NCBI GenBank assembly: GCA_029259655.1
Contig: JAJDET010000264.1
Coordinates: forward strand, 1 to 64,000
Reading direction: 5' to 3'
Length of the DNA: 64,000 nucleotides
Source of the DNA: Planctomycetota bacterium
GTDB lineage: Bacteria > Planctomycetota > UBA1135 > GCA-002686595
A model generated the notes under the pieces. That model saw nothing but the letters and a program-made list of their open reading frames with translations. It was not told the origin of the DNA and did not search any database. Shown here piece by piece: positions 12,267-51,024 of this stretch; the stretch's first letter is position 1, and each line of letters begins with the position of its first letter. A program made the position numbers and the translations under genes.

Positions 12267-12278
12267 TCGGCCCCGTCG

Positions 12279-12326: not shown

Positions 12327-12414
12327 CCTCGACGAAGAGCACTCACGGACGTCGTCCGGCGGCGCGCCCTCCACCCTCGAACGGGTCTCGGGAGGCGTGT
12401 TCCGCGACACGGGT

Positions 12415-12460: not shown

Positions 12461-12473
12461 GAAACGTGAACTG

Positions 12474-12527
12474 GTAAGGCACGCACTGCGTGCTGGGGTT
12501 CAAATCCCTCCACGGGCCTGGATTGGC
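12474..12527 (+). other. degenerate tRNA-Gln-like remnant with a collapsed anticodon arm
   Basis: GGTAAGGCAC D-region like the intact tRNA-Gln. T-arm TGGGG-TTCAAAT-CCCTC. Anticodon arm reduced to CAC-TGC-GTG. Confidence 0.35.
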
Positions 12528-12877
12528 CCCTCCCCGCGATCCGGGGAAGCAACTCTCCGGTGAACCGGTCGAACCGGCGTCGGTCGGACGGCACGGGTCG
12601 TCCGACGACACCGCTGTAGACACCGCAGCGAGAGGCCTCGCAGTCGCGCAACCTCGAGCCGGCGCACCACGGCCTGACTCGTCCTCGCGCGGGATTCGAG
12701 ATCTCGATCCCGTCCCGATGATGGTCATGTCGCGGAAGACGTCGGCTCGATGGCGCGACTCCGCCGCCCGCGCGGAGGCTCGACCGAGAGTCTCTCCCCC
12801 GGATCGCACCACCAAACACGGCACGGGACGTCCCCGTGCTGCTTCTGTTCCGGCCGCAACGAGAGGAGGTGACGGCC

Positions 12878-31610: not shown

Positions 31611-31962
31611 GGCACTTGCGGGAGACGGGGCTCGAGGGACGGGCTCATGGACCGGAAGAGGACCGGCCGGAGCCCGATGGGGCAAAGAGGATAACGTCGG
31701 TTCCCGGAGTCCGCGACGGGAGTTCCACGACCGTCGATAGGAGCCCCCGCGCCCCCCGCGCCCATCGGACGGCTCCGCGCCTCATTCACGATCGTGCCCT
31801 GGGGCTGTGCCCGGCCGGCCCGACACCCACGGCCGAGAAACCGACGTCGGATCCGGGTTACGCGCCGCGGTGGCCGCGATACGGTTCCTGACCCGCGCCC
31901 GCCGAAGGCGATTCCCGGGGGCAGGTCGTTGCGCCGTGCCCTTCAGCGGCCCTGCTCCCGAG

Positions 31963-35530: not shown

Positions 35531-38500
35531 TCAGAGAGGGTCGCCGGAGAGTACCCATCCCGCCCAGTCGCGCAGCTCGGCACCTTCGTCGCGCAGTGCG
35601 CGCTTGGCCTGCCACAGAGCCTCGACCTTCGGCACGCCCTCGAGCCAGAGCTTGGCGTAGAAGAGCTCCATGAGACGCCGCGTCATGGCGTCGTCGACCT
35701 TCCAGAGGCTCGTGATCGCCGTTCGCACGCCCGCTGCGTGGAGAGCTGCCTGCAGCGACTGGACGCCCTGCCCCGCGCGCCGGATGCCGACGCCCGTCTC
35801 GCACGCGCTGAGCACGGCGAGCTCGCACGCCGAGAGATCGACACCGGCCAGCTCCTCCGCGGTCAGGATGCCAGGTACGCGGCCCTGGGAATCGCGGCCG
35901 CGGTTGGCACCGGAGAAGGCGAGACCGCAGAGGGTCATCGGCGCGAAACCGGTCGCCGTCGCACGCGGGTCGAGCGCGTTCCACGGATCGGATTCCCGCT
36001 CCGAGTCGGCGTCGAGGGTCGACGGAACGCTGTCCGGTGCGAACCAGCCGTGGGTCGCGACGTGCAGGTACGACTTGCCGGGCGCTTGCGCGTGAAAGCC
36101 GGCCTTGGTCGCGTACTCGCCGAGGAGGACGAGAGGCCGGCGCTCGAAGGCCTCCTCGAAGAGAGCGCCGACCGCGTTCGCCTCCGCGCGCGTTTCGGCG
36201 AGCGGAGCGAACTTCGTCTGCGCCCCCGCGCTGCGCGTTCCGTGATCGACGGGAGCCGAAGACTCCCCGTCCGGGGAGTGGAGGCCGGTCCCGTCGAACG
36301 CCGCGTCTCCCAGGACCAGGAGCGCCGGCTCGGGCTCGGATCGGCGGGACGACACGACGAGGCGCGCGAACGAGACCTCGATCACGATCCGGTGGCGGTC
36401 ACCGACCCGCACGAGGCGCCCGCCCTCCGGCGGCCGGTCGAGCGGCAACGCGTCCAGCGGCACGACGTGGAGAAAGTCGTCCAGGCAGACGTAGAGGGTC
36501 GTGCCTTCCTCGAGCAGGTTGAGCACCGGGTCGAGGACGTACGCACGCAGGCGCCTCCCGGCCTCGTTCAGGTCGGGCTGGGGCGCGCCCGGATGTCCGA
36601 CACCCAGGCCGCGCGAGACCATCGGCTCCCCGGCGGCTTCGCGCCAGAGCTCCGCGAGCTCCTCGATCCGGGCCGCCGATCCGAGATCCACCTCGATCAG
36701 GGATCCGTCCGGACGCAGAACGTGTGCCGCCATGACCTCGCCCACGGAGCGGAACTCTCGCCATGCGTGGTGACGGAGGAACCCGACCGCGACGGAGCCG
36801 TCGGGCAACGCGCGCGCCACGTCGTCACTCTCGACGGAGCCGGCGAAGACGCCGCTCGCTACGCGATCGTCGCGTACCTCGCGTTCCAGCATGTCGCGCT
36901 CGCGCACGACCTCGAAGATCTCGGCGGCGTACTCCCCCAGCGTCTCGCCCCCACGAGGTCCACCCGCGACCAGGTCGGAGAGTCGCGCGCGCTGAGCGGC
37001 GACACGCTCGGACTGCGAGCTCGCGACCAGGCGACAGCCGGCCATGTTGGAGACCGCGCGCAGCGTCTCGGCCAGATCGAAACGCGCTTCCGCGAGACCG
37101 TCTGCACTGGCCCCACGGGTCAGGTAGCGCACGATCCTGTGGCGGTGCGACTCCCACCTCGCGATCTCCCGCGCTTCGCGAGGTGAGAGCGCCCACGCGA
37201 TCTCGAGCTGACGCCGAACGCCGCGCGCCAGATCCCGTCCGAGCCGGTGCGCTTCCTCGGTCTCCCCCTGTTCCAGTAGGATCAGAGCAAGGTTCTGGCG
37301 GGATCCGAGGAGGTCCGGGTGGTCCTCGGGCAACGTCCGCTCGCGAATGGCGAGGACCTCCGCCAGGAGCGCGCGCGCACGATCGACCTCGCCGATGTTG
37401 CGAAGCGTGATGGCGAGGTTTTCCCGTGCGCCCAGGAGGTTCGGGTGACCTGGGGGAAGCGTCCGCTCGAAACCCTCGAGCACGGACTCCTCCAGCTCCC
37501 GTGCTGCCGCGTGCTGCCTCATCCGCTTCAACAGACCCGCGAGTATCCCGCGGGCACGCAGGAGATCGGGATCGTCCCCGGACCGCGACTGCTCGATGCC
37601 GGCGAGCCCCGCCTCGAGGAGCCGGCGGGCCGCGTCGCGCTCGCCGAGATCGACCAGGATCCCGCTGAGATTGATGCGAGTCCGGAAGAGGTCCACGTGT
37701 TCACTCGGGAGCGTGCGCTCATAGCCGGCGAGTGCGCGTTCCGTCATGGCCCGCGCGGCGACGAGGTCGCCGATCGCGCGCAGGGTCAATCCCAGGTTCG
37801 CGTACGCCGGGAGCCGGCGCGCTTCGTCATTTCCCGCACGCTCGAGCACCGCGAGAGCCGATTCCTGCAGCGCGCGCGCGCGTGACAGATCGCCCAGCGC
37901 CTTGACGGTGTCCGCGAGATCGAGCCGCGCGCCGATAGCGAGCGGATGATCGCCCGCGACGTCGCGTTCGTACCCGGCGAGCACGCTCTCCTGCAATTCG
38001 AGAGCTTCGGGGAGCTGGCCAAGCTCGAAGAGAGTCGCTCCGAGCTTCGCGCGAACGCCGAGGATATCGGGATGCCCCGCAGGAAGGGTCTGCTCGCATG
38101 CGGCGAGAATCGACTCCTGGAGGTCGCGCGCGCGGTCCAGCTCTCCGAGCTTCAGGAGCGTCGTGGAGAGGTTCAGTCTCAGGCGGAGGACCATCGGGTT
38201 CTCGTCGGGCAAGGCCTCGCCCAGATCCGCCAGCGCCCGCTCCTGCAACCTGAGCGCTCCGTCGAGATCGCCCAGCGCGCGCATCGTCAACGCGACGTTC
38301 CCGCGTATGCGCGCGAGGCTGGGGTCGCCAGGACGGTACGCGCGCTCGGCGCTGGAGAGCAGCCCGTCCTCGAGCGCGAGTGCACCCTGGAGATCGCCCA
38401 GACTCTTCAGGGTGAGGGCCAGGTTCTCCCGCGCGCTGAGCGACATCGGGTGCTCTTCGCCGAGCGTGCGCACGAACCCGTCGAGCGTCGCCTCCTGCAA

Positions 38501-39046
38501 CGGACGAGCGCCGGCGAAGTCGCGGAGCTCGTACAGGGTGGCCGCAAGGTTCGAGCGAGCCCGGAGCAGATCGGGGTCGTCGTCGGGACGCGTGCGCTCG
38601 TAGTTCGCGAGGATCTCCTCCTCGAGCCCGCGTGCGCCGTGGAGGTCGCCGCTGGACGCCAGCGCCGTGGCGAGGATCGTCTTCGCGCGCAGGAGCGAGG
38701 GGTCGTCGGGGGGATGCAAGCGCTCGCGGTGCGAGACGATGCGAGCGAATGCCTCGCGGGCTCCCTCGAGGTGCCCGACGTTCCACGCGAGCACGCCCGC
38801 GCGCCAGAGCAACTCGAAAGCCTCGCCACTTTGCTCGTCGAGGGGGATCGCCTCCAGCGTCTCGAGCGCCGCTGCAAGGTCTGCACGCGCCGCTGCGGCG
38901 TCACCGGCTCCCAGCGCGCTCGCCGCACGCTCGAGCACGCGCTCGACGGAGGACAGGTCGACCGGGTGCTCGTCCGTCGCGCCTTCTTGACCGATCAGGG
39001 GTCCCGAGACCGCGAGGGCGATCAGAACAACGTTCGCGAGGGCCAT
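35531..39046 (-). CDS. secreted TPR-repeat protein with a C-terminal CHAT (caspase-like) protease domain
   Basis: Signal peptide, then >15 TPR units. C-terminal YLHVATHG (His) and AVLSACETG (Cys) form the CHAT catalytic dyad. Confidence 0.85.
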   Translation of the reverse strand: MALANVVLIALAVSGPLIGQEGATDEHPVDLSSVERVLERAASALGAGDAAAARADLAAALETLEAIPLDEQSGEAFELLWRAGVLAWNVGHLEGAREAFARIVSHRERLHPPDDPSLLRAKTILATALASSGDLHGARGLEEEILANYERTRPDDDPDLLRARSNLAATLYELRDFAGARPLQEATLDGFVRTLGEEHPMSLSARENLALTLKSLGDLQGALALEDGLLSSAERAYRPGDPSLARIRGNVALTMRALGDLDGALRLQERALADLGEALPDENPMVLRLRLNLSTTLLKLGELDRARDLQESILAACEQTLPAGHPDILGVRAKLGATLFELGQLPEALELQESVLAGYERDVAGDHPLAIGARLDLADTVKALGDLSRARALQESALAVLERAGNDEARRLPAYANLGLTLRAIGDLVAARAMTERALAGYERTLPSEHVDLFRTRINLSGILVDLGERDAARRLLEAGLAGIEQSRSGDDPDLLRARGILAGLLKRMRQHAAARELEESVLEGFERTLPPGHPNLLGARENLAITLRNIGEVDRARALLAEVLAIRERTLPEDHPDLLGSRQNLALILLEQGETEEAHRLGRDLARGVRRQLEIAWALSPREAREIARWESHRHRIVRYLTRGASADGLAEARFDLAETLRAVSNMAGCRLVASSQSERVAAQRARLSDLVAGGPRGGETLGEYAAEIFEVVRERDMLEREVRDDRVASGVFAGSVESDDVARALPDGSVAVGFLRHHAWREFRSVGEVMAAHVLRPDGSLIEVDLGSAARIEELAELWREAAGEPMVSRGLGVGHPGAPQPDLNEAGRRLRAYVLDPVLNLLEEGTTLYVCLDDFLHVVPLDALPLDRPPEGGRLVRVGDRHRIVIEVSFARLVVSSRRSEPEPALLVLGDAAFDGTGLHSPDGESSAPVDHGTRSAGAQTKFAPLAETRAEANAVGALFEEAFERRPLVLLGEYATKAGFHAQAPGKSYLHVATHGWFAPDSVPSTLDADSERESDPWNALDPRATATGFAPMTLCGLAFSGANRGRDSQGRVPGILTAEELAGVDLSACELAVLSACETGVGIRRAGQGVQSLQAALHAAGVRTAITSLWKVDDAMTRRLMELFYAKLWLEGVPKVEALWQAKRALRDEGAELRDWAGWVLSGDPL

Positions 39047-39106: not shown

Positions 39107-40699
39107 CTAGCGAGCCGAGACGAGCACGACGAGCAGGAGCAAGTTGGTCACCGCGTGCGCAACGATCGCCCCGCCGAGTCCCCGTCGCGACCGGATCGCG
39201 AAGTAGGCCGCACCGGCAACCGCGCCGGCGAGCCAGCGCTCGTGCGCGAGGCCGAAGAGCACCGAGGACACCGCGCACACCAGTGGCGCGAGGCGACCCC
39301 GCGCCCCGCCCAGACGGTCGACCAGGTAGCCGCGGAACGCCAGCTCCTCGACCAGAGGCACGACGAGCGCAGACCCCGCGAATCTCGCGACGAGCCAGCC
39401 GACGGTCTCGGCGTCGAGCACTCCCCGTACCCGGGCGAGGTGTTCCGGCGGCACGAGCGGCTCGCCCGCGAGGCCGGCGCTCGCGAGCCAGAACACGAAC
39501 ACCGCAGCGCCGCAGAAGAGCGCCGGCGCGCTCGGGCGAAGATCGATCTTCGAGTAGCGCCGTCGGTAGGCGAACACCACCAGCAAGGGCGCGAGGAACC
39601 GCAGCCACTCGACGTCACCCGGCCGCGCGCTGGCCGTCGCCAGGAGCAGGCCGGCGCCCAGAAAGACGACGAGGGGCAAGAGGAACGTCGATCCGTCGCC
39701 CGGCGGAACGCGATCGGACGCGGGCTCGCGGCGGAAGAAGCTCGCGCGCCGCGCGAGCACCGCCAGCCCGATCGCAAGTCCGCAGAAGAGCACCCACCCT
39801 GCACGCGAGTGGAAGGCACCTACCGCGAGCTCGGGCGAGACCGTGTCACCGATCAGCACGAGCGCTGCGATGCGGACGACGTTCGCGCCGAACGAGAGGA
39901 GTGTCCCCAGCGGCAAGAGCAACAGGGCGTGCGGAAAGCGAAGCTCGTCTCGTCGCAACCAGAGGTGCACGCAGAGAAACACCCACAGGAGGCCCATACC
40001 CTCATAGCCGGAACACCCGGCGCCGATCCTCACGACGAAGTCCGGTGTTCCAACCGCCAGCTCGTCCACGTCGACGAGAACGTCACCCGTGGCGATGCCC
40101 AGGACCACGGCGACGCTCCTCAGCGTGAGCGCGCCGAGCATGCGCCACAAGGGCGCGTCCCCCGCGCTTCCGGCGGAATAGGCGGCGAGGCCGACGACCA
40201 CGCCCGTCGCCATGGCGCACGTGCGCCGGCGCACGGGGAACAAGAGCGCGCGGACCGGTACCGCCAGCGCGAGGATGGAGAGCGCTGTCGAGGCCCCGGT
40301 CGCCGCCCAGACGAGGAGCAGGAACCAGGTCGCGAGCGTGTCCCCGCCACGCGCGTCGAAGAGGTGCCAGGTGAGCGCGCTGAAGACCGTCACGGCCGCG
40401 ACGTGCGCGACGAGGAGCTGCCGGTTCGGTGTCTCGGACGACCTCGCATCCAGGAACGCACGCAGGTCCGTCCTCCCCGACGTCGCGGCCCACGCGGCAC
40501 CGACCGCGAGCGCAGCCGGGAACGCGACCGCGCTGTGTGCGAGGAGTCGCGCCCAGACGTGCGAGCTGGCGCGCAGCGCTGCGGTGTCGAACACGCTCGT
40601 GAGCGCGATCCCCTCGAGCGCGAGGATCGTGCACGCGAGCGCGAGTCGCAGTGCTCCCCCACGCTCCGCGGAGTGCACGAGGACGGGGGGGGCTTCCAC
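39107..40699 (-). CDS. exosortase-family transpeptidase fused to a CPBP/CAAX (Abi) intramembrane protease; XrtE-like
   Basis: N-terminal half carries exosortase motifs (Cys in RIGAGCSGYEG, Asn/Arg in FGANVVRIAAL). C-terminal half carries CPBP motifs EELAFRGY, FGLAHE and HAVTN. Confidence 0.7.
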   Translation of the reverse strand: MEAPPVLVHSAERGGALRLALACTILALEGIALTSVFDTAALRASSHVWARLLAHSAVAFPAALAVGAAWAATSGRTDLRAFLDARSSETPNRQLLVAHVAAVTVFSALTWHLFDARGGDTLATWFLLLVWAATGASTALSILALAVPVRALLFPVRRRTCAMATGVVVGLAAYSAGSAGDAPLWRMLGALTLRSVAVVLGIATGDVLVDVDELAVGTPDFVVRIGAGCSGYEGMGLLWVFLCVHLWLRRDELRFPHALLLLPLGTLLSFGANVVRIAALVLIGDTVSPELAVGAFHSRAGWVLFCGLAIGLAVLARRASFFRREPASDRVPPGDGSTFLLPLVVFLGAGLLLATASARPGDVEWLRFLAPLLVVFAYRRRYSKIDLRPSAPALFCGAAVFVFWLASAGLAGEPLVPPEHLARVRGVLDAETVGWLVARFAGSALVVPLVEELAFRGYLVDRLGGARGRLAPLVCAVSSVLFGLAHERWLAGAVAGAAYFAIRSRRGLGGAIVAHAVTNLLLLVVLVSAR

Positions 40700-40709: not shown

Positions 40710-40922
40710 TCAGGTCTGGGGCGGTGCCGTCTCCGACCGGGAGGACCTCGACCGGATCGCCGGCGCGATCAGGAGCAGGGCCGCGATCACGAGGACGATC
40801 GCCTCCCGCGACCCGCTCGGGTCGATCTCGGGAACGATGGCCTTCGTCAGGTGCCTCCGGCCGAGCTGTGCCGACACGGGAGACGCCAGGAGAAAGGCCG
40901 CCAGGAGGATGCGGCGGAACAT
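40710..40922 (-). CDS. VPEID-CTERM sorting-signal mini-protein (candidate exosortase substrate)
   Basis: Signal peptide MFRRILLAAFLLASPVSA. Only ~11 residues then VPEID. Then TM IVLVIAALLLIAPAI and basic tail RSRSSRS. Ends 10 nt upstream of the exosortase gene. Confidence 0.6.
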   Translation of the reverse strand: MFRRILLAAFLLASPVSAQLGRRHLTKAIVPEIDPSGSREAIVLVIAALLLIAPAIRSRSSRSETAPPQT

Positions 40923-41054: not shown

Positions 41055-42338
41055 CTACCGAGCCAGACGGAAGCCCGCGAACATCCAGCGCTGGTGTGGG
41101 TAGAAGAAGTTGCGGTACGTCCGGCGCAGGTGACTCTCCGGCGTGACGCAGCACCCGCCGCGCAGGACGAGCTGGTTGATCATGAACTTGCCGTTGTACT
41201 CGCCGAGCTCGCCCTCGAAGGGCTCGTAGCCGGGGTAGGGCGCGTAGGGGCTGCGCGTCCACTCCCACACGTCGCCGAAGAGCTGTCCGAGCGAATCGCC
41301 CTCGGGCGCGGAGGACAACCGACGCGGGTGGTACGCACCGGACTCCAGGAACGTCCCGGTCGCAGCGTGTCCCTCGGCCGCGCGCTCCCACTCGAGCTCC
41401 GACGGCAGCCGGCAGCCGGCCCACGTGGCGTAGGCGTCGGCCTCGTAGTAGCTGACGTGGCAGACCGGCTCGCCCGGGTCTATATCGCGAAGCCCGCCGA
41501 GCGTCATCGCGCTTCCCGTGTCGGGTTCCCAGTAGAGCGGTGCGCGCCAGTCCTCCCGCTGCACATGGTCCCAGCCGTCCGCGAGCCAGAGCTCCGAGCG
41601 TCGGTAGCCTCCGTCGTCGACGAAAGCGCTGTACTCGCCGCACGTGACCGGACGCGAGGCGAGCTCGAACGGCTCGAGTCGCGCGGTGTGCCGCGGGCGC
41701 TCGTTGTCGTAGGCGAACCCGCTCCCCTCGTGGCCGATCTCCACGTCCCCACCGTCGAACGAGCGCCACTCGACCGCCGGGACGGCCACCACGGGAATCA
41801 GCGTGCCGGTCGGCGAGGGCCGGCGCCCGTAGGCGGGGCGCATCGGGTTCCCCGCGAGCACGTGCTTCACGTCCATGAGCAGGAGCTCCTGGTGCTGCTG
41901 CTCGTGGTGCATGCCGATGGTCAGGACCGGCGCCACACTCTCGACGCACTCGCGCGAGCCGTCCTCGAGGAGCGCGGTCATCGCCTCGTCGACGTGACGG
42001 CGGTAGTCGCGCACTTCGTCCACGGTCGGCCGCGACAGGAGCCCGCGGCGCGAGCGAGGGAAAGGGTCTCCCAGCGACTGGTAGTAGGAGTTGAAGATCG
42101 CCGAGAAGCGCTCGTCGAAGAGGGAGTACTGCGCGCCGCTCCGCTCGAGCACGAGGGTCTCGAAGAACCACGTGACGTGGGCCAGGTGCCACTTGGTCGG
42201 ACTGACGTCGGGCATGGTCTGCACCACCATGTCCTCCGTCTCGAGAGGCTCGCATAGCGCTTCGGTCACGGACCGCACGCGCTCGTAGGCACGAAGCAGC
42301 TCGCCGCGCTCCTGAGTGATCGGAATCGAGAGAGTCAT
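41055..42338 (-). CDS. egtB: EgtB-like sulfoxide synthase (DinB_2 + FGE-sulfatase domains), ergothioneine/ovothiol-type
   Basis: N-terminal DinB-like HLAHVTWFFE...HHEQQHQELL iron-binding motifs plus a C-terminal FGE-like domain (WEWT...PYPGY). Confidence 0.7.
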   Translation of the reverse strand: MTLSIPITQERGELLRAYERVRSVTEALCEPLETEDMVVQTMPDVSPTKWHLAHVTWFFETLVLERSGAQYSLFDERFSAIFNSYYQSLGDPFPRSRRGLLSRPTVDEVRDYRRHVDEAMTALLEDGSRECVESVAPVLTIGMHHEQQHQELLLMDVKHVLAGNPMRPAYGRRPSPTGTLIPVVAVPAVEWRSFDGGDVEIGHEGSGFAYDNERPRHTARLEPFELASRPVTCGEYSAFVDDGGYRRSELWLADGWDHVQREDWRAPLYWEPDTGSAMTLGGLRDIDPGEPVCHVSYYEADAYATWAGCRLPSELEWERAAEGHAATGTFLESGAYHPRRLSSAPEGDSLGQLFGDVWEWTRSPYAPYPGYEPFEGELGEYNGKFMINQLVLRGGCCVTPESHLRRTYRNFFYPHQRWMFAGFRLAR

Positions 42339-42449
42339 GGTCTTTCGTCGTCGCGGAGGGTCTCCGGAACACCTGTCGGCAGATGGGGTCGGTTGCGAGC
42401 GACGAGTCTAGCGAAGCTGCGCTGCATGTCTTGACCTACAATCCGCCGG

Positions 42450-43421
42450 ATGAGCCCTCTCGCGATGCTTCTTGCCTCACTCCGGAAGGAACCCGACCGC
42501 GCCGCCGCGACGGGCTTCGTCATCAGCCTGGCTATCGGCTGTGGCAAGGTTGGGGACGAGCCGGACGGACCGGGGCGACTCGAGAGCTCGGGCGGGATGG
42601 AGCTCGTGCTCGTCCCCGCAGGCGAGTTCCTGATGGGATCCAGGGACGCCGGCATGCACCGGGAGCAAGAGCTCCCGCGCCACCGAGTCGTCGTCACCCG
42701 CCCGTTCTACATCGGCGTGACGGAAGTCACGGTCGGTCAGTTCGCGGAGTTCGTCGAGGCGACCGACTATCGCACCGAGGCCGAACGCGACCCGCAGGGC
42801 GGCTTCGGCTTCGACCTCGGCACGGGCTCGCCCCTCCAGACCGGGGGACTCTCGTGGCGTGACCCGGGCTTCGAGCAGACGAACGAGCACCCGGTCGTGC
42901 AGGTCAGCTGGATCGACGCGGAGGCGTTCTGCCAGTGGCTCTCCGAGCGCGACGATCGTCGCTACCGCCTCCCCACGGAAGCCGAGTGGGAGTACGCGGC
43001 TCGCGCGGGGACAACGACGCGCTGGTTCTTCGGCGAAGACCCTTCGGAGCTCTCCGAGTTCGCGAACATCGCAGACGCCTCGCTTCCGGCTGCCTTCCCC
43101 GAAGTCGACTGGGCGGCGGAATGGGACGACGGGCACGCGTTCACGTCCCCGGTCGGCCGCCGTCGGGCCAATCCATGGGGACTCCACGACGTGATAGGCA
43201 ACGTCTGGGAATGGTGCGCCGACTGGCACGACGCCGACTACTACGCGGCTTCGCCGGAGAGGGATCCACAGGGACCCGACGAGGGGCGCATGCGCGCGGT
43301 TCGCGGGGGTGGCTGGTACGACCCCGTGCAGCGCACGCGCTCTGCGCAGCGCGCCTGGTTCTCTCCGGTCTTCCGCTACTGCCAGCTGAGCGGATTCCGG
43401 GTCGTGTGCGAGGTCCAGTAG
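42450..43421 (+). CDS. formylglycine-generating-enzyme (FGE/SUMF1) family lipoprotein
   Basis: Lipobox AIGCG. MVLVPAGEFLMGS...HPVVQVSWIDAEAFCQWL...RLPTEAEWEYAARAG is typical FGE-sulfatase. Confidence 0.8.
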   Translation: MSPLAMLLASLRKEPDRAAATGFVISLAIGCGKVGDEPDGPGRLESSGGMELVLVPAGEFLMGSRDAGMHREQELPRHRVVVTRPFYIGVTEVTVGQFAEFVEATDYRTEAERDPQGGFGFDLGTGSPLQTGGLSWRDPGFEQTNEHPVVQVSWIDAEAFCQWLSERDDRRYRLPTEAEWEYAARAGTTTRWFFGEDPSELSEFANIADASLPAAFPEVDWAAEWDDGHAFTSPVGRRRANPWGLHDVIGNVWEWCADWHDADYYAASPERDPQGPDEGRMRAVRGGGWYDPVQRTRSAQRAWFSPVFRYCQLSGFRVVCEVQ

Positions 43422-43444
43422 ACTGACGAGAGGAGCTCACGAAC

Positions 43445-43828
43445 ATGGAAAGCCGTCATCCCTGTGGCGTCTGCGCCGCTCTCCTCCTCACGCTCGCGGC
43501 GTCCGGGTGCCTCTCGCTCGACTACGACCTCTCCGGCGTGCCGGTTCCGGTGAGCGCCAAGTCCGTGGACCCGGGGAGCGCCGCAGAGGTCGAGCCGTTC
43601 CGGATCGAGACGCGGAACACGCTCTGGATCCACGGCCTCCTGGGGCGCAACACTCCCGACATCGGCGCGCTCGTCGCCGAGCAGGCGGCAGGCTGGGACG
43701 AGATCGCCGGCTTCCGCGTACAGCAGCGGAGCGGGGTGTCCCACTGGCTGCTCGCGCACCTGTCGCTGACCCTGATCCGCATGCGCAAGGTCGTCATCGA
43801 GGGCCAGCTCGTGCGGGAGCTCCCCTGA
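43445..43828 (+). CDS. small hypothetical lipoprotein
   Basis: MESRHPCGVCAALLLTLAASGC lipobox. Confidence 0.45.
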   Translation: MESRHPCGVCAALLLTLAASGCLSLDYDLSGVPVPVSAKSVDPGSAAEVEPFRIETRNTLWIHGLLGRNTPDIGALVAEQAAGWDEIAGFRVQQRSGVSHWLLAHLSLTLIRMRKVVIEGQLVRELP

Positions 43829-43847
43829 CTCGATCGAACCGACGGCG

Positions 43848-45110
43848 TCAGGGGCAGATCTCGATCCGGACGCCGTTCGAGAGGGCGAAACCCATCGGCT
43901 GGGTCGCATCCGGGGCGAGAGCCTGGAAGTACACCGCGACACCGGTCAGGACGGGGTCGACGGGCATCGGGACGGTGAATGCGTCGGTACCGCTCTTGAA
44001 CTCCGCACCGAACACGGGCTCCGTCAGGTCGACGAGCCCGATCCCGCCGAGCAGCGGCTCGCCGGCCTCGGCGCGCGACGAGACGCACCACCACCCGGTC
44101 TCGGGAACGGACTTCGGTGCGAGGTCCACCGACCCGCCGAGCGCCGGATCGCCGACCGCCGTGAGCTCGAGCGTGTTGACTGCGCTCGCACCGGCGCCGT
44201 ACTCGGTGATTCCGCAGGTCGGACCGAAGACGGCGCGCGCGGCCACGTCCTGCAACAGGGCGGCGTCCGCCAGGTCGATCGGACCGGCGTAGGAGATCCC
44301 GACCGGGCTCTCGCCGAAGATCTTCGCGTAGAACACGCACGCGGCGAGGTAGCTGCCCTCGTGCGTGGGGTGCGACGCGTCGGCCTGGTGCAGGGCGATG
44401 CCCGGATGGAGCGCTCGACTCACGCGCCACGCTTCGCCGACCGGCGCGACCGGAGCGCCGATCAACGCTCCGACGTCGGCATAGGCGGCGGTCACCTCGT
44501 CCTGCATCTCCTCGAAGCTCGCGAAGACGGGACTGCAGTCGTTGCTCCCGCAGAACTGCCCGCCGTTCTGCCTTCCCCAGGTCTGGAACAAGAGCGTGGT
44601 CGTCGCCGGGTCGTTCGCCTTGATCGAAGCGTCGAGGCTCTGGGCCCCGGGCATCATGAAGTTGTCGCGCTTGAACGGGATCGTCGGCGTCGTGCTCTGT
44701 TCCTGCAGGACGACGTAGTCCCAGGCCTCCGACGCGATCATGGCCAGGGAGGTCGGGTTCGTGGAGTGCTGCCCGTTGCCTGCCTGCGGCTCACCCAGCG
44801 TGTTGCCACCGGGCGTGTGCTTGGCGTCGGTGACCTGACGACCTCGGTCGGCGGCGAGGTTCCGGAAGAGGATCGCCAGCTCGTTCTGGGCCGTGTAGCT
44901 GTTGCCGAGGAAGAGCACCTTGGTCTCCACGGCGGGCGGCGGGTTCCCCCCGCCGATCCCTCCGCCTCCACCCCCGGTCCCCGGAGGCGGAACCGGCGGC
45001 CCCACCGGGACCGAGCCCGACGAAGACCCGCCGTTGCAGGACGTGAACGCGAGGAGGAGTCCGAGGAGGAGGACCCCGGACGCCTGGGAGGTGGTGGTGG
45101 ACGAGGACAC
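43848..45110 (-). CDS. SGNH-like (DUF4886-type) lipoprotein; paralog of 48632-49789
   Basis: Lipobox FTSC, low-complexity Gly/Pro linker, then KVLFLGNSYT...WDYVVLQEQS...FQTWGR...SHP, shared with the paralog. Confidence 0.6.
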   Translation of the reverse strand: MSSSTTTSQASGVLLLGLLLAFTSCNGGSSSGSVPVGPPVPPPGTGGGGGGIGGGNPPPAVETKVLFLGNSYTAQNELAILFRNLAADRGRQVTDAKHTPGGNTLGEPQAGNGQHSTNPTSLAMIASEAWDYVVLQEQSTTPTIPFKRDNFMMPGAQSLDASIKANDPATTTLLFQTWGRQNGGQFCGSNDCSPVFASFEEMQDEVTAAYADVGALIGAPVAPVGEAWRVSRALHPGIALHQADASHPTHEGSYLAACVFYAKIFGESPVGISYAGPIDLADAALLQDVAARAVFGPTCGITEYGAGASAVNTLELTAVGDPALGGSVDLAPKSVPETGWWCVSSRAEAGEPLLGGIGLVDLTEPVFGAEFKSGTDAFTVPMPVDPVLTGVAVYFQALAPDATQPMGFALSNGVRIEICP

Positions 45111-45185
45111 GCCGGTTGAACTCTAGCTCGCTCGCGAGCGGTCGTTACGCCGCACGGCGCGCCATCGGAAAGCGTTTCGGACCGG

Positions 45186-46754
45186 TCAGCCGTGCAGCTC
45201 GTCCAGGCACGCGCGCACGACGGCCGGACGGTCGACCTTTCCGTTGGCCGTGAGCGGCATCGCGCCCTCCCAGGCGTGAATGCGCGCGGGAACCATGTAC
45301 GTCGGCATGTTCGAGGCGCAGTGGATCGCGAGGGAGTCGACGTCGACCGGGCCGGCCCCGGGCCGGGCGGCCACGGCCAGGTGGACGCGCTGCCCGAGCT
45401 CGTCGTCCTCGACTCCGAACGCCACGGCCTCTCCGATGAGCCCGCTCGCCTGCGCCACCTCCTCGACCTCGGTCGGAGAGAGCCGGAAGCCGCTCGACTT
45501 GATCATCCCGTCCATGCGCCCGACGAACCACAGGAAGCCGTCCTCGTCGCGACGGACCAGGTCGCCGCTGTGGCAAACGGGCTCGTCACCGATCCGCGCG
45601 GCGAGGTGGCGGTTGGGCCGGATCCGCGCACGCGTCTCCTCCTCGCGGCCCCAGTAGCCACGGCTGACGAGCGCGCCGCGGTGGACGAGCTCGCCCTCTT
45701 CGCCGGGCCCGCAGATTCCGTTCTCCGGATGCACGACGAAGATCTCGACGTCGGGGATCGCGCGTCCGATCGAGCCGAGTTTCTCCTCGAAGAGCGCGGG
45801 CGGAAGGTAGGTGGAGCGGAAGGCCTCGGTCAGCCCGTACATGAGATAGATGTCGACCCCCGGCAGGACGTGCGGCATGACCTCGAGCACGGGCTCGGGG
45901 ATCTTGCCGCCCGTGTTCGTGACGTAGCGCAGGTGCGGGAGCTCCGTCTTCGCCTCCTCGAGGAAGCGAATGATCGGAATCCATGCCGGGGGTACGGCGG
46001 CGATCCCGGTCACGCGTTGCTCGACGGCCGTCCGCACGACCTCGCTCGGCATGGGCACGCGCTGCAGGACTACGGTGGCCCCGACGAGGAACCCGGTCGT
46101 GAGCTGCGACAGCCCGGCGTCGAAGTTGAAGGCGAGCAGCGCGAGGATCCGGTCCTCGGCCGTGTTCTCGAGGTACGTCGCGACGATGCGCGCGCCGTCG
46201 ACGACGTTCCTGTGCGTGACCATGACGCCCTTCGGCTTGCCCGTGGAGCCGGAGGTGTAGAGGAGCGCGGCGAGATCGTTTCCGACGGGGGCGGGGGCAT
46301 CCACGCTCGCGCCGTTCTCGAGCGAGCTCCACGTCGTGCAGCGCGCGTCGTCCCGCCCCTTCCCGTGAACGAGCAGCGCCTCGAGCTCGTCGGCGAGCGG
46401 CGCCGCGAGGATCGCTTTCGCCTTGCGCGTGTCCGTGATCAGGTGGCGGATCCCGCAGTCTCGAACGACGAACTCGAGCTGCACCGAAGTCCACTGGTAG
46501 TGCACGTCGACCCAGACAGCCCCGATGCGCGCGGCCGCGAAGATCCCGACGACTTCCTCGACGCTCTTGTGCAGGTGGATTCCCACGCGGTCGCCGCGAC
46601 GCACGCCGCGCGCGAGGAGCCAGGCCGCGACCGCGTCGACTCGTTGCGCCAGCTCGGCGTAGGAGACCTCCGCGTCACCGAGGACGAGCGCGGTGTGCGC
46701 GCTCCGCTCTCCGAGGTTCTTGCGCAAGAGGTCGTGGACGTTGAAGGGGATCAA
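45186..46754 (-). CDS. AMP-dependent synthetase/ligase (adenylation enzyme, DltA-like role)
   Basis: LLYTSGSTGKPKGV core motif, YGLTE, GELVHRGALVSRGYW, and C-terminal lysine loop. Confidence 0.85.
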   Translation of the reverse strand: MIPFNVHDLLRKNLGERSAHTALVLGDAEVSYAELAQRVDAVAAWLLARGVRRGDRVGIHLHKSVEEVVGIFAAARIGAVWVDVHYQWTSVQLEFVVRDCGIRHLITDTRKAKAILAAPLADELEALLVHGKGRDDARCTTWSSLENGASVDAPAPVGNDLAALLYTSGSTGKPKGVMVTHRNVVDGARIVATYLENTAEDRILALLAFNFDAGLSQLTTGFLVGATVVLQRVPMPSEVVRTAVEQRVTGIAAVPPAWIPIIRFLEEAKTELPHLRYVTNTGGKIPEPVLEVMPHVLPGVDIYLMYGLTEAFRSTYLPPALFEEKLGSIGRAIPDVEIFVVHPENGICGPGEEGELVHRGALVSRGYWGREEETRARIRPNRHLAARIGDEPVCHSGDLVRRDEDGFLWFVGRMDGMIKSSGFRLSPTEVEEVAQASGLIGEAVAFGVEDDELGQRVHLAVAARPGAGPVDVDSLAIHCASNMPTYMVPARIHAWEGAMPLTANGKVDRPAVVRACLDELHG

Positions 46755-46835
46755 GGTGTTTCTCCGCCAGGTCGCGGATCATGCTAGTTTTCGGCGCCCG
46801 CCCGGCAAGAGCGGGAGTCCCGCCGCGGACAGCCG

Positions 46836-48020
46836 ATGGTCCTACTGACTTCCTTCTGGTGCGTCCTCTTCGCCTCGGCCGCACTGTTCTGGTTCCTGCC
46901 GCCTCGCGCGCGCCTCCCGTTCTTGTCCCTGGTCTCGATCGGCTTCCTCGGCTGGCTCACCTGGCTGCCCGTCGCGATCCTGCTCGTGTGGGTCGTCCTC
47001 TTCTGGTTCGGGGTCCGCGGCCCCGAACCCGGCTCCGAGGGAAAGCCCCATCGCTCGTTCCACTACCTCCTGATCCTGGGCGTCCTGGGACAGCTGGCCT
47101 GGTTCAAGTACCTGCCCCCCCTCGTCGCTGCGCTCGCCAGCACCGAGATCGAAGCGCTCGTCATCGTTCCGCTCGGGATGAGCTTCTTCACGTTCAAGCT
47201 CGTGCACTACGCGTTCGAGGTCTCGCGCGGAACGGTCCAGCGCGCCGGCTTCGCTCAGTTCACGAGCTACATGTTTCTCTTCCCGATCTTCACGGCGGGG
47301 CCGATCGAGCGGTACGACCACTACCTGGCGAACCAGGAATCGCGCTGGTCGCTCGAGTCCTGGAGCGAGGGGTTGCTGCGCATCGCCAAGGGCGTGATCA
47401 AGCGCTTCTTCGCCGCCGAGGTCCTGCTCCGGCCCGTGATCGACGACCTCACGGTGGACGTCCTCGCAGACCTGTCGGTGTTGTCGGTGTGGGAGGTCTG
47501 GTCCTATCTCGCGCTGACGTTTCTGTACATCTACATGGACTTCAGCGCCTACTCCGACATCGGCATCGGGGGAAGCCGGCTGTTCGGGCTGCGCATCGCC
47601 GAGAACTTCCGCTTCCCGCTCATCGCGTGCGACATCGGAGACTTCTGGAAGCGCTGGCACATGAGCCTCTCGCGGTGGTGCCAGTCCTACGTCTACCTGC
47701 CGACCATGGGAGTGACGCGAAAACCGTACCTCGCGACCTATGCGACCTTCCTCGTCATGGGGTTGTGGCACGCCGGCACCCTGAACCGGATCGGCTGGGG
47801 CATGTACCACGCGACGGGAACGGCGGTGTTCATCGCCTGGACACAGGTGAAGCGACGGCGGCGCTGGAAGAAGACGTTCCAGCGGCCGCTGCTCCGCTAC
47901 TCGGGGATCCCCATCACGATGATGTTCATCACGGGCAGCGCGGCGTTCCTCGCGGCCGAGGCGGAAGGCCAGGGCCTGTCGGCCTCCATCCGGATCCTGG
48001 GGCGACTGTTCGCCCTCTGA
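46836..48020 (+). CDS. MBOAT-family membrane O-acyltransferase (DltB/AlgI-like)
   Basis: About 10 TM helices. FTAGPIERY. Invariant His in GLWHAG. Confidence 0.85.
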   Translation: MVLLTSFWCVLFASAALFWFLPPRARLPFLSLVSIGFLGWLTWLPVAILLVWVVLFWFGVRGPEPGSEGKPHRSFHYLLILGVLGQLAWFKYLPPLVAALASTEIEALVIVPLGMSFFTFKLVHYAFEVSRGTVQRAGFAQFTSYMFLFPIFTAGPIERYDHYLANQESRWSLESWSEGLLRIAKGVIKRFFAAEVLLRPVIDDLTVDVLADLSVLSVWEVWSYLALTFLYIYMDFSAYSDIGIGGSRLFGLRIAENFRFPLIACDIGDFWKRWHMSLSRWCQSYVYLPTMGVTRKPYLATYATFLVMGLWHAGTLNRIGWGMYHATGTAVFIAWTQVKRRRRWKKTFQRPLLRYSGIPITMMFITGSAAFLAAEAEGQGLSASIRILGRLFAL

Positions 48021-48076
48021 CCCCCCCGGAGCGGCGCGTGAGCCCTTGCGGGCGCCTCGGTCCACGAACGGCAGCC

Positions 48077-48110
48077 TTGGCCGCCCCGGACCGCTAACTA
48101 CAATATAATG
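48077..48110 (+). promoter_or_regulatory. sigma-70-like promoter in an AT-rich island: TTGGCC-16nt-TACAAT
   Basis: ctaactacaatataatgtgttatgg is strikingly AT-rich for this genome. The -35/-10 spacing is 16 nt. Confidence 0.35.
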
Positions 48111-48178
48111 TGTTATGGTTCGGGGGCGGACCCGAGGGGCTCTCCCGGCCTCGCCCGTCGGGAACGACTCACCTCACC

Positions 48179-48337
48179 ATGGCGAACGGAGGCATCGGCT
48201 CGGCCGCCCCGCACATCGGGCGGTGGCTGGGAATCCTGCTCCAGGGCTTGGTCCTGGGGATCCTCCTGTTCGCGGCCACGCTCTCCCTGCTCCTCGTTCA
48301 GTCGGGAGCGCGGGTCTTCCGCTACGAGAACTTCTGA
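48179..48337 (+). CDS. DltX-like single-TM micro-protein ending ...FRYENF
   Basis: 52 aa: MANGGIGSAAPHIGRWLGILLQGLVLGILLFAATLSLLLVQSGARVFRYENF. One TM helix and a C-terminal F-x-Y-x-x-F motif like DltX (FIYNEF). Sits between the MBOAT and carrier genes. Confidence 0.5.
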   Translation: MANGGIGSAAPHIGRWLGILLQGLVLGILLFAATLSLLLVQSGARVFRYENF

Positions 48338-48350
48338 AGCAGGCATCCAG

Positions 48351-48596
48351 GTGCTCTTCTCCCCGAAACAGCTGGTCTCGTTCATCGTCGAGCGCTTCGA
48401 GCTCGAGAACGACGAGGTCGACGAGACCACGTCGCTCTTCAACGACGGGCTGCTCGACTCCTTCCACCTGCTCGAGCTCGTCCACCACTTCGAGGCCAAG
48501 CTGGGGATCAAGGTCGCGCCGCTGGAGATGACCCTCGAGAACTTCGACACGGTGGCCCGCACCGTTCGCTACCTCGAGTCGAAGAAGGCGTCATGA
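48351..48596 (+). CDS. acyl/peptidyl carrier protein (DltC-like)
   Basis: 81 aa with phosphopantetheine-attachment motif LLDSFHLLEL. GTG start. Confidence 0.65.
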   Translation: MLFSPKQLVSFIVERFELENDEVDETTSLFNDGLLDSFHLLELVHHFEAKLGIKVAPLEMTLENFDTVARTVRYLESKKAS

Positions 48597-48631
48597 CCAC
48601 TCGTTTTCGAGACTCCCTCTAGACTGCGTTC

Positions 48632-49789
48632 ATGGGACTGCTCCTCACCACGCTGGTACTCGCCGCCGCACCCGTTCAGAGTCCGGAGACGACCAAAGTG
48701 CTGTTCCTGGGGAACAGCTACTTCAGGACGATCCCCGAGTACTTCGAGAGCTTCGCCAACGCGGGTGGGCACACCGTGCTCGTCGATAGCTACGCCCCCG
48801 GAGGGAACACGCTGGGCTCGCCGCAGGGCGGGATGACGCAGGCCCACTCGGTGAACTCCGCGTCTCTGTCCAAGATCGCATCCGAGCCCTGGGACTTCGT
48901 CGTCCTGCAGGAACAGAGCGCGACGCCCGTGATCGAGTTCACCAAGAACTCCTTCATGAAGCCGGGCGCCATGAGCCTCGACGCTTCGATCAAGGCCAAC
49001 CACCCCAAGACGCGCACCGCGATGTTCCAGACGTGGGGTCGAAAGGATGGCGGGCAATTCTGCTGGAACACGGAGTGCAGCCCGTTGTTCCCGGACTTCG
49101 ATTCGATGCAGGACGTGTTGACCTCCGCCTACGTGGAGGTCAGCCGGTTGATCGGCGCCGGCATGATCCCGGCCGGGGAGACGTGGCGCGCCGTCATGGA
49201 GGCCGTCCCCACGGTGAACCTGTTCAGCGAGGACGGGTCTCACCCGAACCCCGTAGGCAGCTACGTCGGCGCCTGCGCGGTCTACGCGTATTTCTTCAGG
49301 GAGCCGCCCCGGGGCTTCTACCTCGTCGACCTGAGCATGGAGACGCAGCTCCTCCTCCAGGACATCGCGACCGAGGTCGTGCTGGGCAAGGTCTGCGAGT
49401 CCGTCACGAGCCTCCAGTATCAACCGAGCAGCGCGGGCCCGTTCACGCTCGAGGGACACCTCGGGGCCGCGGGGACCGGCTCCCGCGGAAGCGACCTCGT
49501 GCTGACGCCGACGCACCTCCCCGAGGGAGCGCCCGGGGCATGGATCGTCTCGAGTCTGAACCCGGTTCGAATCGAGCTCGACGTGCTCGACTTCGATCCC
49601 CTCCGATCGCTCTTCCCGCCGCGCTTCGTCCCCGCCGGGAGCTCGATCGCGATTCCCATCCCGGACTTCCCCGAGCTCGAGGGTTGGAGTGCGCAGTTCC
49701 AGGCGGCCGCGAAAGCGCCGGGCCCGAGCAGCGTCTCGCTCTCGCGTGGGCTCGAGCTCACTTTCTGGGCCTGCTGGAAAGAGCTGTAG
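48632..49789 (+). CDS. SGNH-like (DUF4886-type) secreted protein; paralog of 43848-45110
   Basis: Signal peptide. KVLFLGNSYF...WDFVVLQEQS...FQTWGRKDGGQFC...SHPNP aligns with the paralog. Confidence 0.6.
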   Translation: MGLLLTTLVLAAAPVQSPETTKVLFLGNSYFRTIPEYFESFANAGGHTVLVDSYAPGGNTLGSPQGGMTQAHSVNSASLSKIASEPWDFVVLQEQSATPVIEFTKNSFMKPGAMSLDASIKANHPKTRTAMFQTWGRKDGGQFCWNTECSPLFPDFDSMQDVLTSAYVEVSRLIGAGMIPAGETWRAVMEAVPTVNLFSEDGSHPNPVGSYVGACAVYAYFFREPPRGFYLVDLSMETQLLLQDIATEVVLGKVCESVTSLQYQPSSAGPFTLEGHLGAAGTGSRGSDLVLTPTHLPEGAPGAWIVSSLNPVRIELDVLDFDPLRSLFPPRFVPAGSSIAIPIPDFPELEGWSAQFQAAAKAPGPSSVSLSRGLELTFWACWKEL

Positions 49790-49908
49790 GCTCGACGCGG
49801 ATTCGCGCACAACGGCACCGCGGACGCCGACGGAGCACTTTCTCGGCTTTCGTTGAGGCCGCCGATACCGTTCGGCGCACGCTGAAGTGAAGCGCCTGGA
49901 GCCTCCCA

Positions 49909-51024
49909 ATGATCGCCGCCCTTCTCCTCGCCGCAGGCCCGCTCGTCCCCCATCTGTCGGACCCTCCGTCCAGGACCGAACCCGCCCTGCGCGGACTCGA
50001 TCCCGTGCTGCTCTGCGAGGAGAGCGCGGAGACTCCGGGTCGCCAGGACCTGCAGGTCACGCACGGCCGCTTCACCTACTGCTTCTCCGGGGCAGAGACG
50101 CGCGTGCGTTTCCTCGACGACCCCGAGCGCTTCGGCATCCAGTGGGGCGGCGGCTGCGGCGCGATGGGTCCGCTCTCCGGAATCGGGAGCCCCGAGCGCT
50201 GGGCCGTCCACGCCGGCCGTATCTACATCTTCGCCTCGGACGGTTGCCGCGAGGGTTTCCTGGACGCGCCCGAGCGCTTCGTGGTCGCGCCGGCCGAGCC
50301 CCCGACCTTCCCGGAAGAAGAAGGTGAGGTGCGGTGGAAAGCTGGAGCAGCCATGCTCCTGCAAGCGGTCCGCGCGCACGGTGGCGTCCAGGCGATCGAC
50401 GCCCCGCGCGCCCTCAGGCTCGTCTACCAGGGGACGCAGGACGACTGGACGCACCGGATCGAGCTCGTCTTCACGCGCGATGCGCTCGAGCGCAGCTCCA
50501 TCTGGACTCCGCCCGCGGACGGGGCTGCGAGAGAGGTCACGCGGTGGGTGCTGGCGGAATCCGCCTTCGTCGACGAGGGCGGAGCTGTCTTCCCGGTAAC
50601 GAGCCCGGATCAGGTTCTCGACCTGCGTCGCTTCGCGCACAGAGAGCCGATCGCGCTCCTGTGGGCAAGTGCCGGCTCTGACCTCCTCGCCGCGTGGACC
50701 GGCACGAGCAAGCTCCCCGGCAATCCGGGGGTCCGGGTCGTGGACGTCATCGTCCACCACGCCGGCCTCGTGACCACGCTCCACCTCGATCCGGAGTCTT
50801 GCAAGATCCTCGGGCTCTCCTGGCGTGGCCGCGCGATCGACGGCGTGACGCGCGACGTCGTCGAGGTCTTCACCGACTGGCGCGACGTCGGCGGTGCGCT
50901 CATCCCCACCGGACGGACGGTGATGGTGGATGGAGAGGTGACCCCCTCCCTGGCACTCACCTGGAACACCGCCGAGCTCCTGGCCCGGGTTCCGGCTCAC
51001 TCCTTCGAACGAGGTGTGCGATGA
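49909..51024 (+). CDS. secreted protein with two YHS/TRASH-like metal-binding modules
   Basis: RFTYCFSGAETRVRFLDDPERF and RIYIFASDGCREGFLDAPERF resemble YHS domains (YYFCS..C...F..DPEKY). Confidence 0.45.
   Translation: MIAALLLAAGPLVPHLSDPPSRTEPALRGLDPVLLCEESAETPGRQDLQVTHGRFTYCFSGAETRVRFLDDPERFGIQWGGGCGAMGPLSGIGSPERWAVHAGRIYIFASDGCREGFLDAPERFVVAPAEPPTFPEEEGEVRWKAGAAMLLQAVRAHGGVQAIDAPRALRLVYQGTQDDWTHRIELVFTRDALERSSIWTPPADGAAREVTRWVLAESAFVDEGGAVFPVTSPDQVLDLRRFAHREPIALLWASAGSDLLAAWTGTSKLPGNPGVRVVDVIVHHAGLVTTLHLDPESCKILGLSWRGRAIDGVTRDVVEVFTDWRDVGGALIPTGRTVMVDGEVTPSLALTWNTAELLARVPAHSFERGVR

Follow-up and report, generated by a model that had tools for sequence, protein, structure and literature searches.

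Can a bacterium that probably has two membranes run an acylation pathway of the kind known from the Dlt system of Firmicutes, with a small tyrosine-bearing peptide as the acyl relay? The question was raised by a 64,000-nucleotide stretch of DNA from a Planctomycetota bacterium (NCBI GenBank assembly GCA_029259655.1, contig JAJDET010000264.1, positions 1 to 64,000 of the forward strand; hereafter, the window). Open reading frames (ORFs) together with Pfam and NCBIfam searches delimited a six-gene cassette at 43848-49789, encoded on both strands in two divergent halves. A first-pass annotation, made from the sequence alone, had proposed that it comprises the five parts of the Dlt pathway, i.e., an AMP-ligase, a membrane-bound O-acyltransferase (MBOAT), a DltX-like microprotein, a carrier protein and SGNH-like proteins, and all of these were recovered from the ORFs and Pfam matches. 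We consider it likely that the cassette specifies an MBOAT/SGNH system that depends on a carrier protein and acylates an extracytoplasmic polymer, either of the envelope or an exopolysaccharide. Such a system would work like Dlt, but would be built from different protein families.

The MBOAT is of the DltB type and has no tyrosine motif of its own

The short MBOAT (46836..48020, + strand, 394 aa; PF03062, 74 bits) had been assigned the role of DltB, and the evidence placed it with DltB and not with AlgI. Its only NCBIfam match was the DltB model TIGR04091 (153 bits, E 1.3e-44, below the 375 bits required of an equivalog), and among PDB sequences it matched DltB alone (6BUG/8JEM, E 2e-25), in an alignment that paired the RWHMSLS and WH motifs. 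In line with this, DltB was the best fold match of its AlphaFold2 (AF2) model (pLDDT 85.8) over the full length, with a template modelling score of 0.75-0.76. H312 (in WHAG) aligned with His336 of DltB and H275 (in RWHMSLS) with His289. Both were invariant in 26 homologues, as were H124, W271, W274, W311 and W321; H312 and H275 provide the invariant catalytic histidine that marks the MBOAT-SGNH acyl-tyrosine shuttle class. In DltB, a cluster of His and aromatic residues lines the outer funnel (PMC11035591). By sequence and predicted fold, the enzyme is nearest DltB, yet it is no DltB equivalog.

The window MBOAT ends in ..RILGRLFAL, without a C-terminal Tyr motif, and a terminal aromatic-x-Y-x-x-aromatic was present in none of its 120 closest homologues (322-431 aa). 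An outgroup of distant long MBOATs (28-39% identity) was obtained by a contig scan with patterns generic to all AlgI/DltB-type MBOATs; among the matches listed, 78 of 80 ended in F[IL]YF[QR]F directly before the stop. As PMC12148441 puts it in summarising Schultz et al. (2023), the relay depends on an FxYxxF tyrosine that is either carried by DltX or, in a fused form, part of the MBOAT itself. The fused motif is absent from the window enzyme and present on a neighbouring peptide, which places the window MBOAT in the DltB type. On this reading of the sequences, the architecture is split (DltB/DltX-type), not fused (PatA/AlgI-type).

The microprotein is conserved and ends in the tyrosine motif

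The neighbouring peptide is a single-transmembrane microprotein of 52 aa (48179..48337, + strand; MANGGIGSAAPHIGRWLGILLQGLVLGILLFAATLSLLLVQSGARVFRYENF, ending in GARVFRYENF before the stop) with a short basic N-terminus, one transmembrane helix and a 12-residue tail. F-x-Y-x-x-F thus stands at the extreme C-terminus after a transmembrane helix, as is characteristic of the acyl-tyrosine shuttle class. A chance ORF was rejected, since F.Y..F before a stop was unique (a single case for 1695 stops in the six frames of the window, with 0.003 expected) and since pN/pS for the last 38 codons was 0.27-0.42 against the orthologues in L081 and L107 (related loci carry L numbers throughout). Further, F.Y..F was found nowhere else in the six-frame translation of the window. 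The ORF showed GC fractions of 0.92 and 0.37 at third and second codon positions (GC3 and GC2, respectively), the GC3 being like that of genuine genes of the window, and the public annotation of the source contig also calls the 52-aa protein. Judged by its pN/pS values, the microprotein is under purifying selection.

Conservation was followed from the MBOAT as well as from the peptide. In the MBOAT-first survey, eight loci (MBOAT identity 41-70%) were fetched from at least 1620 MBOAT homologues of ~390-400 aa. A small ORF ending in FRY[EQ]xF before the stop adjoined the MBOAT in seven of them; the eighth, L087, is a paralogous MBOAT/carrier-protein pair located a few kb from the L081 cassette on the same contig. 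This pair (L087, 8001-9446), a short MBOAT and a carrier protein without their own microprotein or ligase, adjoins two Lipase_GDSL_2-type proteins, an acyltransferase_3 and a PMT_2 glycosyltransferase. Several microproteins of the fetched loci had been missed by gene finders, those of L081 and L111 being uncalled. The microprotein occurred in all eight genomes that were reached from the MBOAT; orthologous genomes with it were Planctomycetota-like or belonged to Nitrospirota, Acidobacteriota and Hydrogenedentes.

In the peptide-first survey, metagenome contigs were scanned with G[AVG][RKH][VIL]FRY[EQ][NGA]F, which gave 19 confirmed loci, all with the stop directly after the motif. A short MBOAT lay downstream of the peptide in all 15 loci with downstream sequence, starting within ~115 nt (typically 4-50 nt), and ligase and carrier protein came after the MBOAT wherever the contig extended. 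Lastly, a profile of three peptides was run against 1.84 billion cluster representatives (50% identity) and retrieved 153 proteins at E<=0.001; 145 of the 150 listed were 33-87 aa in length, nearly all aligned to their final residue. F(-6) and Y(-4) were each retained in 144 of these 145 representatives and the last residue was F, Y or W in 143, with the consensus F-R-Y-Q-G-F, whereas the rest of the peptide varied. A word-indexed homologue search with the 52-aa peptide returned only three matches. The first-pass annotation had counted on a conserved microprotein whose terminal FxYxxF is kept among orthologues, and both expectations were borne out, the motif being always terminal.

The microprotein aligned end to end with DltX of Bacillus thuringiensis (sequence from PMC5541007), F, Y and F being in register. 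The proposed likeness of FRYENF to the C-terminus of DltX stood as far as the length, the topology plan and the terminal motif are concerned; it did not extend to the DltX family, to which hidden Markov models (HMMs) gave no match. We presume that the microprotein is an acyl-shuttle peptide with Tyr49 as the acyl acceptor.

A different arrangement was seen in L001 (uncultured bacterium CAZQAE010000003.1; 4330-4445, 6868-6981), where a short MBOAT ending in ..RLFGLLGG is followed by a 38-aa peptide, MKPSIFRDIIYGALLFLLLVMIVIMGGKAPQFVYVMF, with a further copy of the peptide 2.4 kb upstream. With FVYVMF as its motif, this peptide represents a third type of split Tyr-motif microprotein, distinct from the others.

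The ligase and the carrier protein fall outside the DltA and DltC families

A ligase and a stand-alone carrier protein are encoded with the MBOAT in the window and in every related locus with enough sequence. The adenylate-forming ligase of the window (45186..46754, - strand, 522 aa; AMP-binding, 264 bits, plus AMP-binding_C) had been cast as DltA. An adenylate-forming ligase does lie by the carrier protein, but it is TIGR03098-like and not of the DltA family: its best NCBIfam model was TIGR03098, 'exosortase A system-associated' (560.5 bits vs. a cut-off of 592.35), and DltA models were absent from its 25 best-ranked NCBIfam families. The nearest PDB relatives were A domains of non-ribosomal peptide synthetases (NRPS), with no DltA chain among the 60 best PDB matches. 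The ligase also stays outside TIGR03098 proper, and Pfam and NCBIfam searches of the window found no TIGR03099 decarboxylase partner.

The carrier protein (48351..48596, + strand, GTG start, 81 aa) matched PF00550 PP-binding with 30.7 bits (cut-off 20.8) and contains GLLDSF. Of the DltC role proposed for this LLDSF protein, the carrier function is supported by the PP-binding match and the family membership is not: its scores were under the cut-offs of the DltC HMMs TIGR01688 (25.6 vs. 52 bits) and NF003464 (37.4 vs. 68 bits), and under those of acyl carrier protein models as well. The motif G[LIT][LI]DSF, whose Ser is the phosphopantetheine site, was kept in the carrier proteins of related loci. 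The ligase presumably loads the carrier protein.

The substrate pocket of the ligase was located by motif mapping (ligase residues ~205-215 and ~305-315). In PheA numbering, with GrsA as the reference, its residues are presumably D235, A236, S239, A278, T299, T301, M322, R330 and S331. In amino-acid-activating domains, the A4 Asp binds the alpha-amino group. This Asp (D235) was present in the ligases of the window, L081, L084 and L083 and missing in orthologues of 52-57% identity, and we rejected any assignment of a specific substrate to the ligase; R330-S331 after YGLTE (YGLTEAFRS) was kept in all TIGR03098-like ligases of related loci.

L083 has a DltA/NRPS-type domain as ligase instead, and L084 and L111 add a TIGR03099-type decarboxylase next to the carrier protein, that of L084 with 326 bits (under the cut-off of 478). 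Taken together with the pocket variation, these differences mean that the acyl group cannot be named. The first-pass annotation had likewise held that the acyl substrate is not inferable from sequence, and pocket mapping indeed yielded no conserved specificity code. Judging from these loci, the acyl group probably differs between them. The L084 cassette (Luteitalea sp. TBR-22, 9456-13182) includes a TIGR03099-like pyridoxal phosphate (PLP) decarboxylase and a sulfotransferase, and that of L111 (5550-10643) a decarboxylase, an NRPS module and a PEP mutase; these extras hint at elaborate acyl groups, possibly amino- or phosphonate-bearing.

DUF4886 proteins as candidates for the part of DltD

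Two paralogous SGNH-like lipoproteins had been proposed for the DltD position. The paralogs are indeed of the SGNH clan (43% identical over 364 aa), but a lipobox-like Cys is present in the first only and neither is DltD. Both matched DUF4886 (PF16227, cut-off 26.7 bits), an SGNH-clan family without known function (PMC9487903). Paralog 1 (43848..45110, - strand, 420 aa; 41.2 bits) combines a signal peptide and its lipobox-like ..LAFTSC with a tether rich in Gly and Pro, an SGNH domain (GNSY ... DASHP) and, at the C-terminus, a domain of the beta-sandwich type; it aligned with PDB entry 4S1P in blocks I and V (E 1.2e-8) and is a candidate for a periplasmic partner that transfers acyl groups or acts as an esterase. 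The signal peptide of paralog 2 (48632..49789, + strand, 385 aa; 28.4 bits) lacks a Cys, and the protein further contains an SGNH domain (Ser29, Asp201, His204) and a beta domain at its C-terminus; G27, N28, S29, Y30, D201 and H204 were invariant in 40 homologues. Its AF2 model (pLDDT 86.5) was closest in fold to 4I8I, a DUF4886 structure (E 3e-12); further SGNH esterases/acyltransferases, including PatB, ranked next. DltD is characterised by PF04914 and an N-terminal transmembrane anchor, which neither DUF4886 protein showed, the fold search giving DUF4886 and generic SGNH proteins. By sequence and model, the two are putative extracytoplasmic SGNH-fold partners with a predicted Ser-His-Asp triad.

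The closest clade consists of the window, L081 and L107 (MBOATs 67-70% identical, motif FRYENF). Here, the DUF4886 genes are intermingled with those for the microprotein, the carrier protein and the MBOAT, in three differing orders, which argues for a functional linkage.

In all FRYQ[GA]F loci, the gene immediately upstream of that for the microprotein encodes a protein of ~370 aa with an N-terminal transmembrane anchor; L081 encodes such a protein as well as DUF4886. This family, found in the DltD position in L083-L085, L088, L093, L099, L102, L104-L106, L108, L111 and L081, has invariant G(x)S, E and D-x-x-H. It gave no Pfam or NCBIfam match, and its profile hit neither DltD nor anything else among PDB sequences; a sub-threshold similarity to GDSL_2, along with the GxS/DxxH motifs, is what suggests an SGNH nature. 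The L104-L106 members have Ala in place of the presumed nucleophile Ser (GTAAMRE).

A proposed relay from carrier protein to polymer

The following steps were inferred from the anatomy of the cassette and the established Dlt and PatAB mechanisms. The ligase would adenylate a carboxylic or amino acid and transfer it, as a thioester, to the phosphopantetheine arm of the 81-aa carrier protein. The acyl-carrier protein would dock at the cytoplasmic face of the short DltB-type MBOAT, whose H312 (with H275) would pass the acyl group through the tunnel to Tyr49 of the FRYENF hexapeptide, the transmembrane helix of the microprotein putting the tail on the periplasmic side. The acyl-Tyr tail would then swing to the Ser-His-Asp site of the periplasmic SGNH protein (here a DUF4886 paralog), which would place the acyl group onto a hydroxyl of the acceptor glycopolymer. 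We regard the relay part (ligase, carrier protein, MBOAT and Tyr49) as probable and the transfer step by DUF4886 as an even call. The other DUF4886 paralog may act as a further transferase or, alternatively, remove acyl groups as an esterase. As for the acceptor, the other loci lie among glycan genes (GT2, GT4, PIG-L, NeuB, sulfotransferases, APS kinase and GT87), a context that suggests a polysaccharide.

Counter-evidence and alternative explanations

Several observations weigh against the proposed system. The Pfam DltX model (PF12459/DUF3687) matched none of 100 members of the microprotein family at E<=10 and gave no match to the window peptide at E<=1, and an hhalign comparison of the family with B. 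thuringiensis DltX was not significant (E 0.039, probability 1.3%). The topology with the C-terminus outside is an assumption, the two Arg of the tail making the positive-inside rule indecisive. The ligase pocket varies among orthologues, and the window itself has no glycosyltransferase near the cassette. Finally, DUF4886 homologues of full length were also found in neighbourhoods devoid of an MBOAT, and most related loci have in the SGNH position the transmembrane-anchored protein, which the window lacks; these two facts make DUF4886 as the final transferase the least secure step.

A competing explanation, which we judge possible though distinctly less probable, keeps the relay as described and takes the DUF4886 proteins for trimming esterases or unrelated secreted enzymes, the transferase being encoded elsewhere, e.g., by the transmembrane-anchored family. 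Trimming has a parallel in the Ape1 esterase, which trims the modification next to PatA/PatB. The full-length DUF4886 homologues in unrelated contexts show 40-45% identity, and many DUF4886 relatives are PKD/T9SS-tagged secreted enzymes. In addition, the ~370-aa GxS...DxxH protein is used by most microprotein loci, even by L081 alongside DUF4886. However, no member of that family lies within reach in the window or in L107, and in three loci of differing gene order, the DUF4886 genes lie among those for the microprotein, the carrier protein and the MBOAT, with ends that overlap or abut.

The surroundings of the cassette bring in another explanation. The window encodes an exosortase E / CPBP-protease fusion (39107-40699, - strand; TIGR04162, 215.5 bits vs. 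a cut-off of 150), and directly upstream of it a 70-aa ORF (40710-40922, - strand) with a signal peptide, ~10 mature residues, a VPEID motif, a transmembrane helix and a basic tail. These elements make the ORF a minimal VPEID-CTERM substrate, which lies 3 kb away from the cassette. It is improbable that the cassette is part of this exosortase E / VPEID-CTERM system, with the acyl or aminoacyl group going onto sorted proteins or onto the moiety to which exosortases transfer them. Such a link would fit with TIGR03098 as the best ligase model, with XrtE (TIGR04162) and the VPEID-CTERM ORF lying so close and with the TIGR03099-type decarboxylases of L084 and L111, but an exosortase adjoined the cassette in none of at least 20 related loci examined. 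Moreover, the ligase scores under the TIGR03098 cut-off, the window has no decarboxylase, and three unrelated genes stand between the two systems.

Very improbable, in our view, is a microprotein that is merely structural or regulatory, or a spurious ORF, with an incidental FRYENF and an MBOAT that acylates the acceptor directly. Profile methods gave no DltX homology, and direct transfer was the earlier model for DltB (discussed in PMC11035591). This is at odds, however, with the near-invariance of the terminal F-x-Y-x-x-aromatic in 145 representatives across phyla, with a pN/pS of about 0.3, with the strict either/or of fused motif and separate peptide, and with the Tyr relay shown experimentally for DltX and PatA (PMC12148441).

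Least probable of all is that a genuine dlt operon was acquired from Firmicutes and serves to D-alanylate a polymer of the envelope, as happens in Dickeya or Bordetella. We rejected this despite the same five roles and DltB as the nearest characterised MBOAT relative, since membership in DltA, DltB (equivalog), DltC, DltD and DltX was found for none of the proteins (the DltB, DltC and DltX models were sub-threshold or without a match, and DUF4886 stands instead of DltD), the GC3 is native to the genome and the family is broad in environmental diderm phyla. A natural-product cluster was also considered and rejected.

Layout and transcription of the cassette

The coding signature of all six genes is the genome's own (GC3 0.90-0.93). 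Divergent transcription had been proposed to start from 46755-46835, and the start codons of the ligase and MBOAT genes do flank this 81-bp gap in divergent orientation; no promoter-like site lies inside it, a consensus scan of 43400-50200 having given no sigma70-like match there. The scan returned a single match (0.2 expected), TTGGCC-16-TACAAT at 48077..48104 (+ strand), which is a consensus match only. It may be an internal promoter that drives the genes of the microprotein, the carrier protein and the DUF4886 protein after them. The match falls in an AT-rich island (48095-48120, CTAACTACAATATAATGTGTTATGG) between the MBOAT stop and the microprotein start, in this genome of 68% GC. Rfam and tRNA scans gave no match in the cassette region.

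The host and the remainder of the window

The host had been called a probable diderm, and this is well supported by what the window encodes: the nearest named homologues of its DUF4886 proteins are from Planctomycetota, and exosortase E and the VPEID-CTERM ORF are present. Between the exosortase and the cassette lie two proteins with FGE-sulfatase domains (41055-43421), one of them with DinB_2 and EgtB-like. Further features of the window are a sigma-70 region 2/4 domain fused to CarboxypepD_reg repeats (31807-34389, + strand), a TPR-CHAT protein of 1171 aa (35531-39046, - strand) and a tRNA cluster (11914-12257, + strand) with His-GTG, Phe-GAA, Lys-CTT and Gln-CTG.

Novelty and significance

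The first-pass annotation had expected a DltX-like relay outside Firmicutes to generalise the mechanism. This was overstated, as the Tyr relay has already been extended to Gram-negatives through the fused motif of PatA (PMC12148441); moreover, a few Gram-negatives were already known to carry true dlt operons accompanied by a small DltX-like ORF (PMC5541007). According to a 2025 paper by the groups that established the mechanism (PMC12148441), neither a carrier protein nor a DltX-like microprotein occurs in MBOAT pathways apart from Dlt. The present cassette and its many relatives contradict this, and full-text literature searches found no description of the present microprotein or cassette family. 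To go by the homologues collected here (at least 1620 MBOATs and ~145 microprotein clusters), a split, carrier-protein-fed Tyr relay is widespread in environmental Gram-negative phyla.

A broader reading, whose chances we put at even, is that these loci form an undescribed, phylum-spanning class of modular polymer-acylation cassettes of diderms. Their core would be the short DltB-type MBOAT and the ~45-aa FRY(Q/E)xF microprotein, a family absent from Pfam and NCBIfam, to which interchangeable loading modules and transferases would be added, so that differing acyl or aminoacyl groups are put on different exopolysaccharides or envelope glycans. The loading modules would be a TIGR03098-type or a DltA/NRPS-type ligase, with or without the PLP decarboxylase, and the transferases DUF4886 or the transmembrane-anchored GxS...DxxH family. 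If true, this would for the first time place DUF4886 and the ligase/decarboxylase pair associated with exosortases in a mechanistic setting. The cassette offers a first functional handle on DUF4886 and TIGR03098/TIGR03099 genes, points to probably non-acetyl modifications of envelope or secreted glycans, and includes a conserved microprotein that gene callers often overlook.

Comparison with known systems

With Dlt of Firmicutes, the cassette shares an adenylating ligase, a small carrier protein whose phosphopantetheine site reads DS(F/M), an extracytoplasmic SGNH-fold protein, an MBOAT of ~400 aa without a Tyr motif of its own and a single-transmembrane microprotein of ~50 aa ending in F-x-Y-x-x-F. 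The fold of the MBOAT and its active-site cluster of His and aromatic residues match those of DltB. In contrast, its other components lie outside the DltA, DltX, DltC and DltD families, the ligase being of the TIGR03098 / NRPS-A type and the SGNH partner a DUF4886 lipoprotein or secreted protein, whereas DltD is N-terminally transmembrane-anchored. Further, the motif reads FRY(E/Q)xF against FIYNEF in DltX, the gene order differs, and the host is a diderm without teichoic acids.

Systems of the PatA/PatB type, which O-acetylate peptidoglycan, and those of the AlgI/AlgJ/AlgX and WssH type also combine an MBOAT and a periplasmic SGNH transferase in diderms, with a C-terminal FxYxxF Tyr shuttle (PMC12148441). 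Their MBOATs of the PatA/AlgI type are longer (~470-500 aa), bear the motif on two extra C-terminal helices and use acetyl-CoA as the donor, with neither carrier protein nor ligase; in the cassette, a separate peptide bears the motif and the carrier protein would serve as donor. The dlt operons of the Gram-negatives Dickeya and Pectobacterium (PMC5541007) represent a diderm Dlt system with a small upstream ORF of DltX-like topology. They consist of dltABCD orthologues, whereas the cassette family is distinct in all components and spread over environmental phyla.

The TIGR03098/TIGR03099 pair is of unknown function, and the NCBIfam model descriptions, which are all that was compared, name only an association with exosortase A. 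The ligase of the window comes near to its first member, below the cut-off, and L084 and L111 carry the decarboxylase. Lastly, the two window paralogs are members of DUF4886 (4I8I, 4S1P) with Ser, Asp and His kept, and differ by an extra C-terminal beta domain and by their setting in an MBOAT/carrier-protein cassette.

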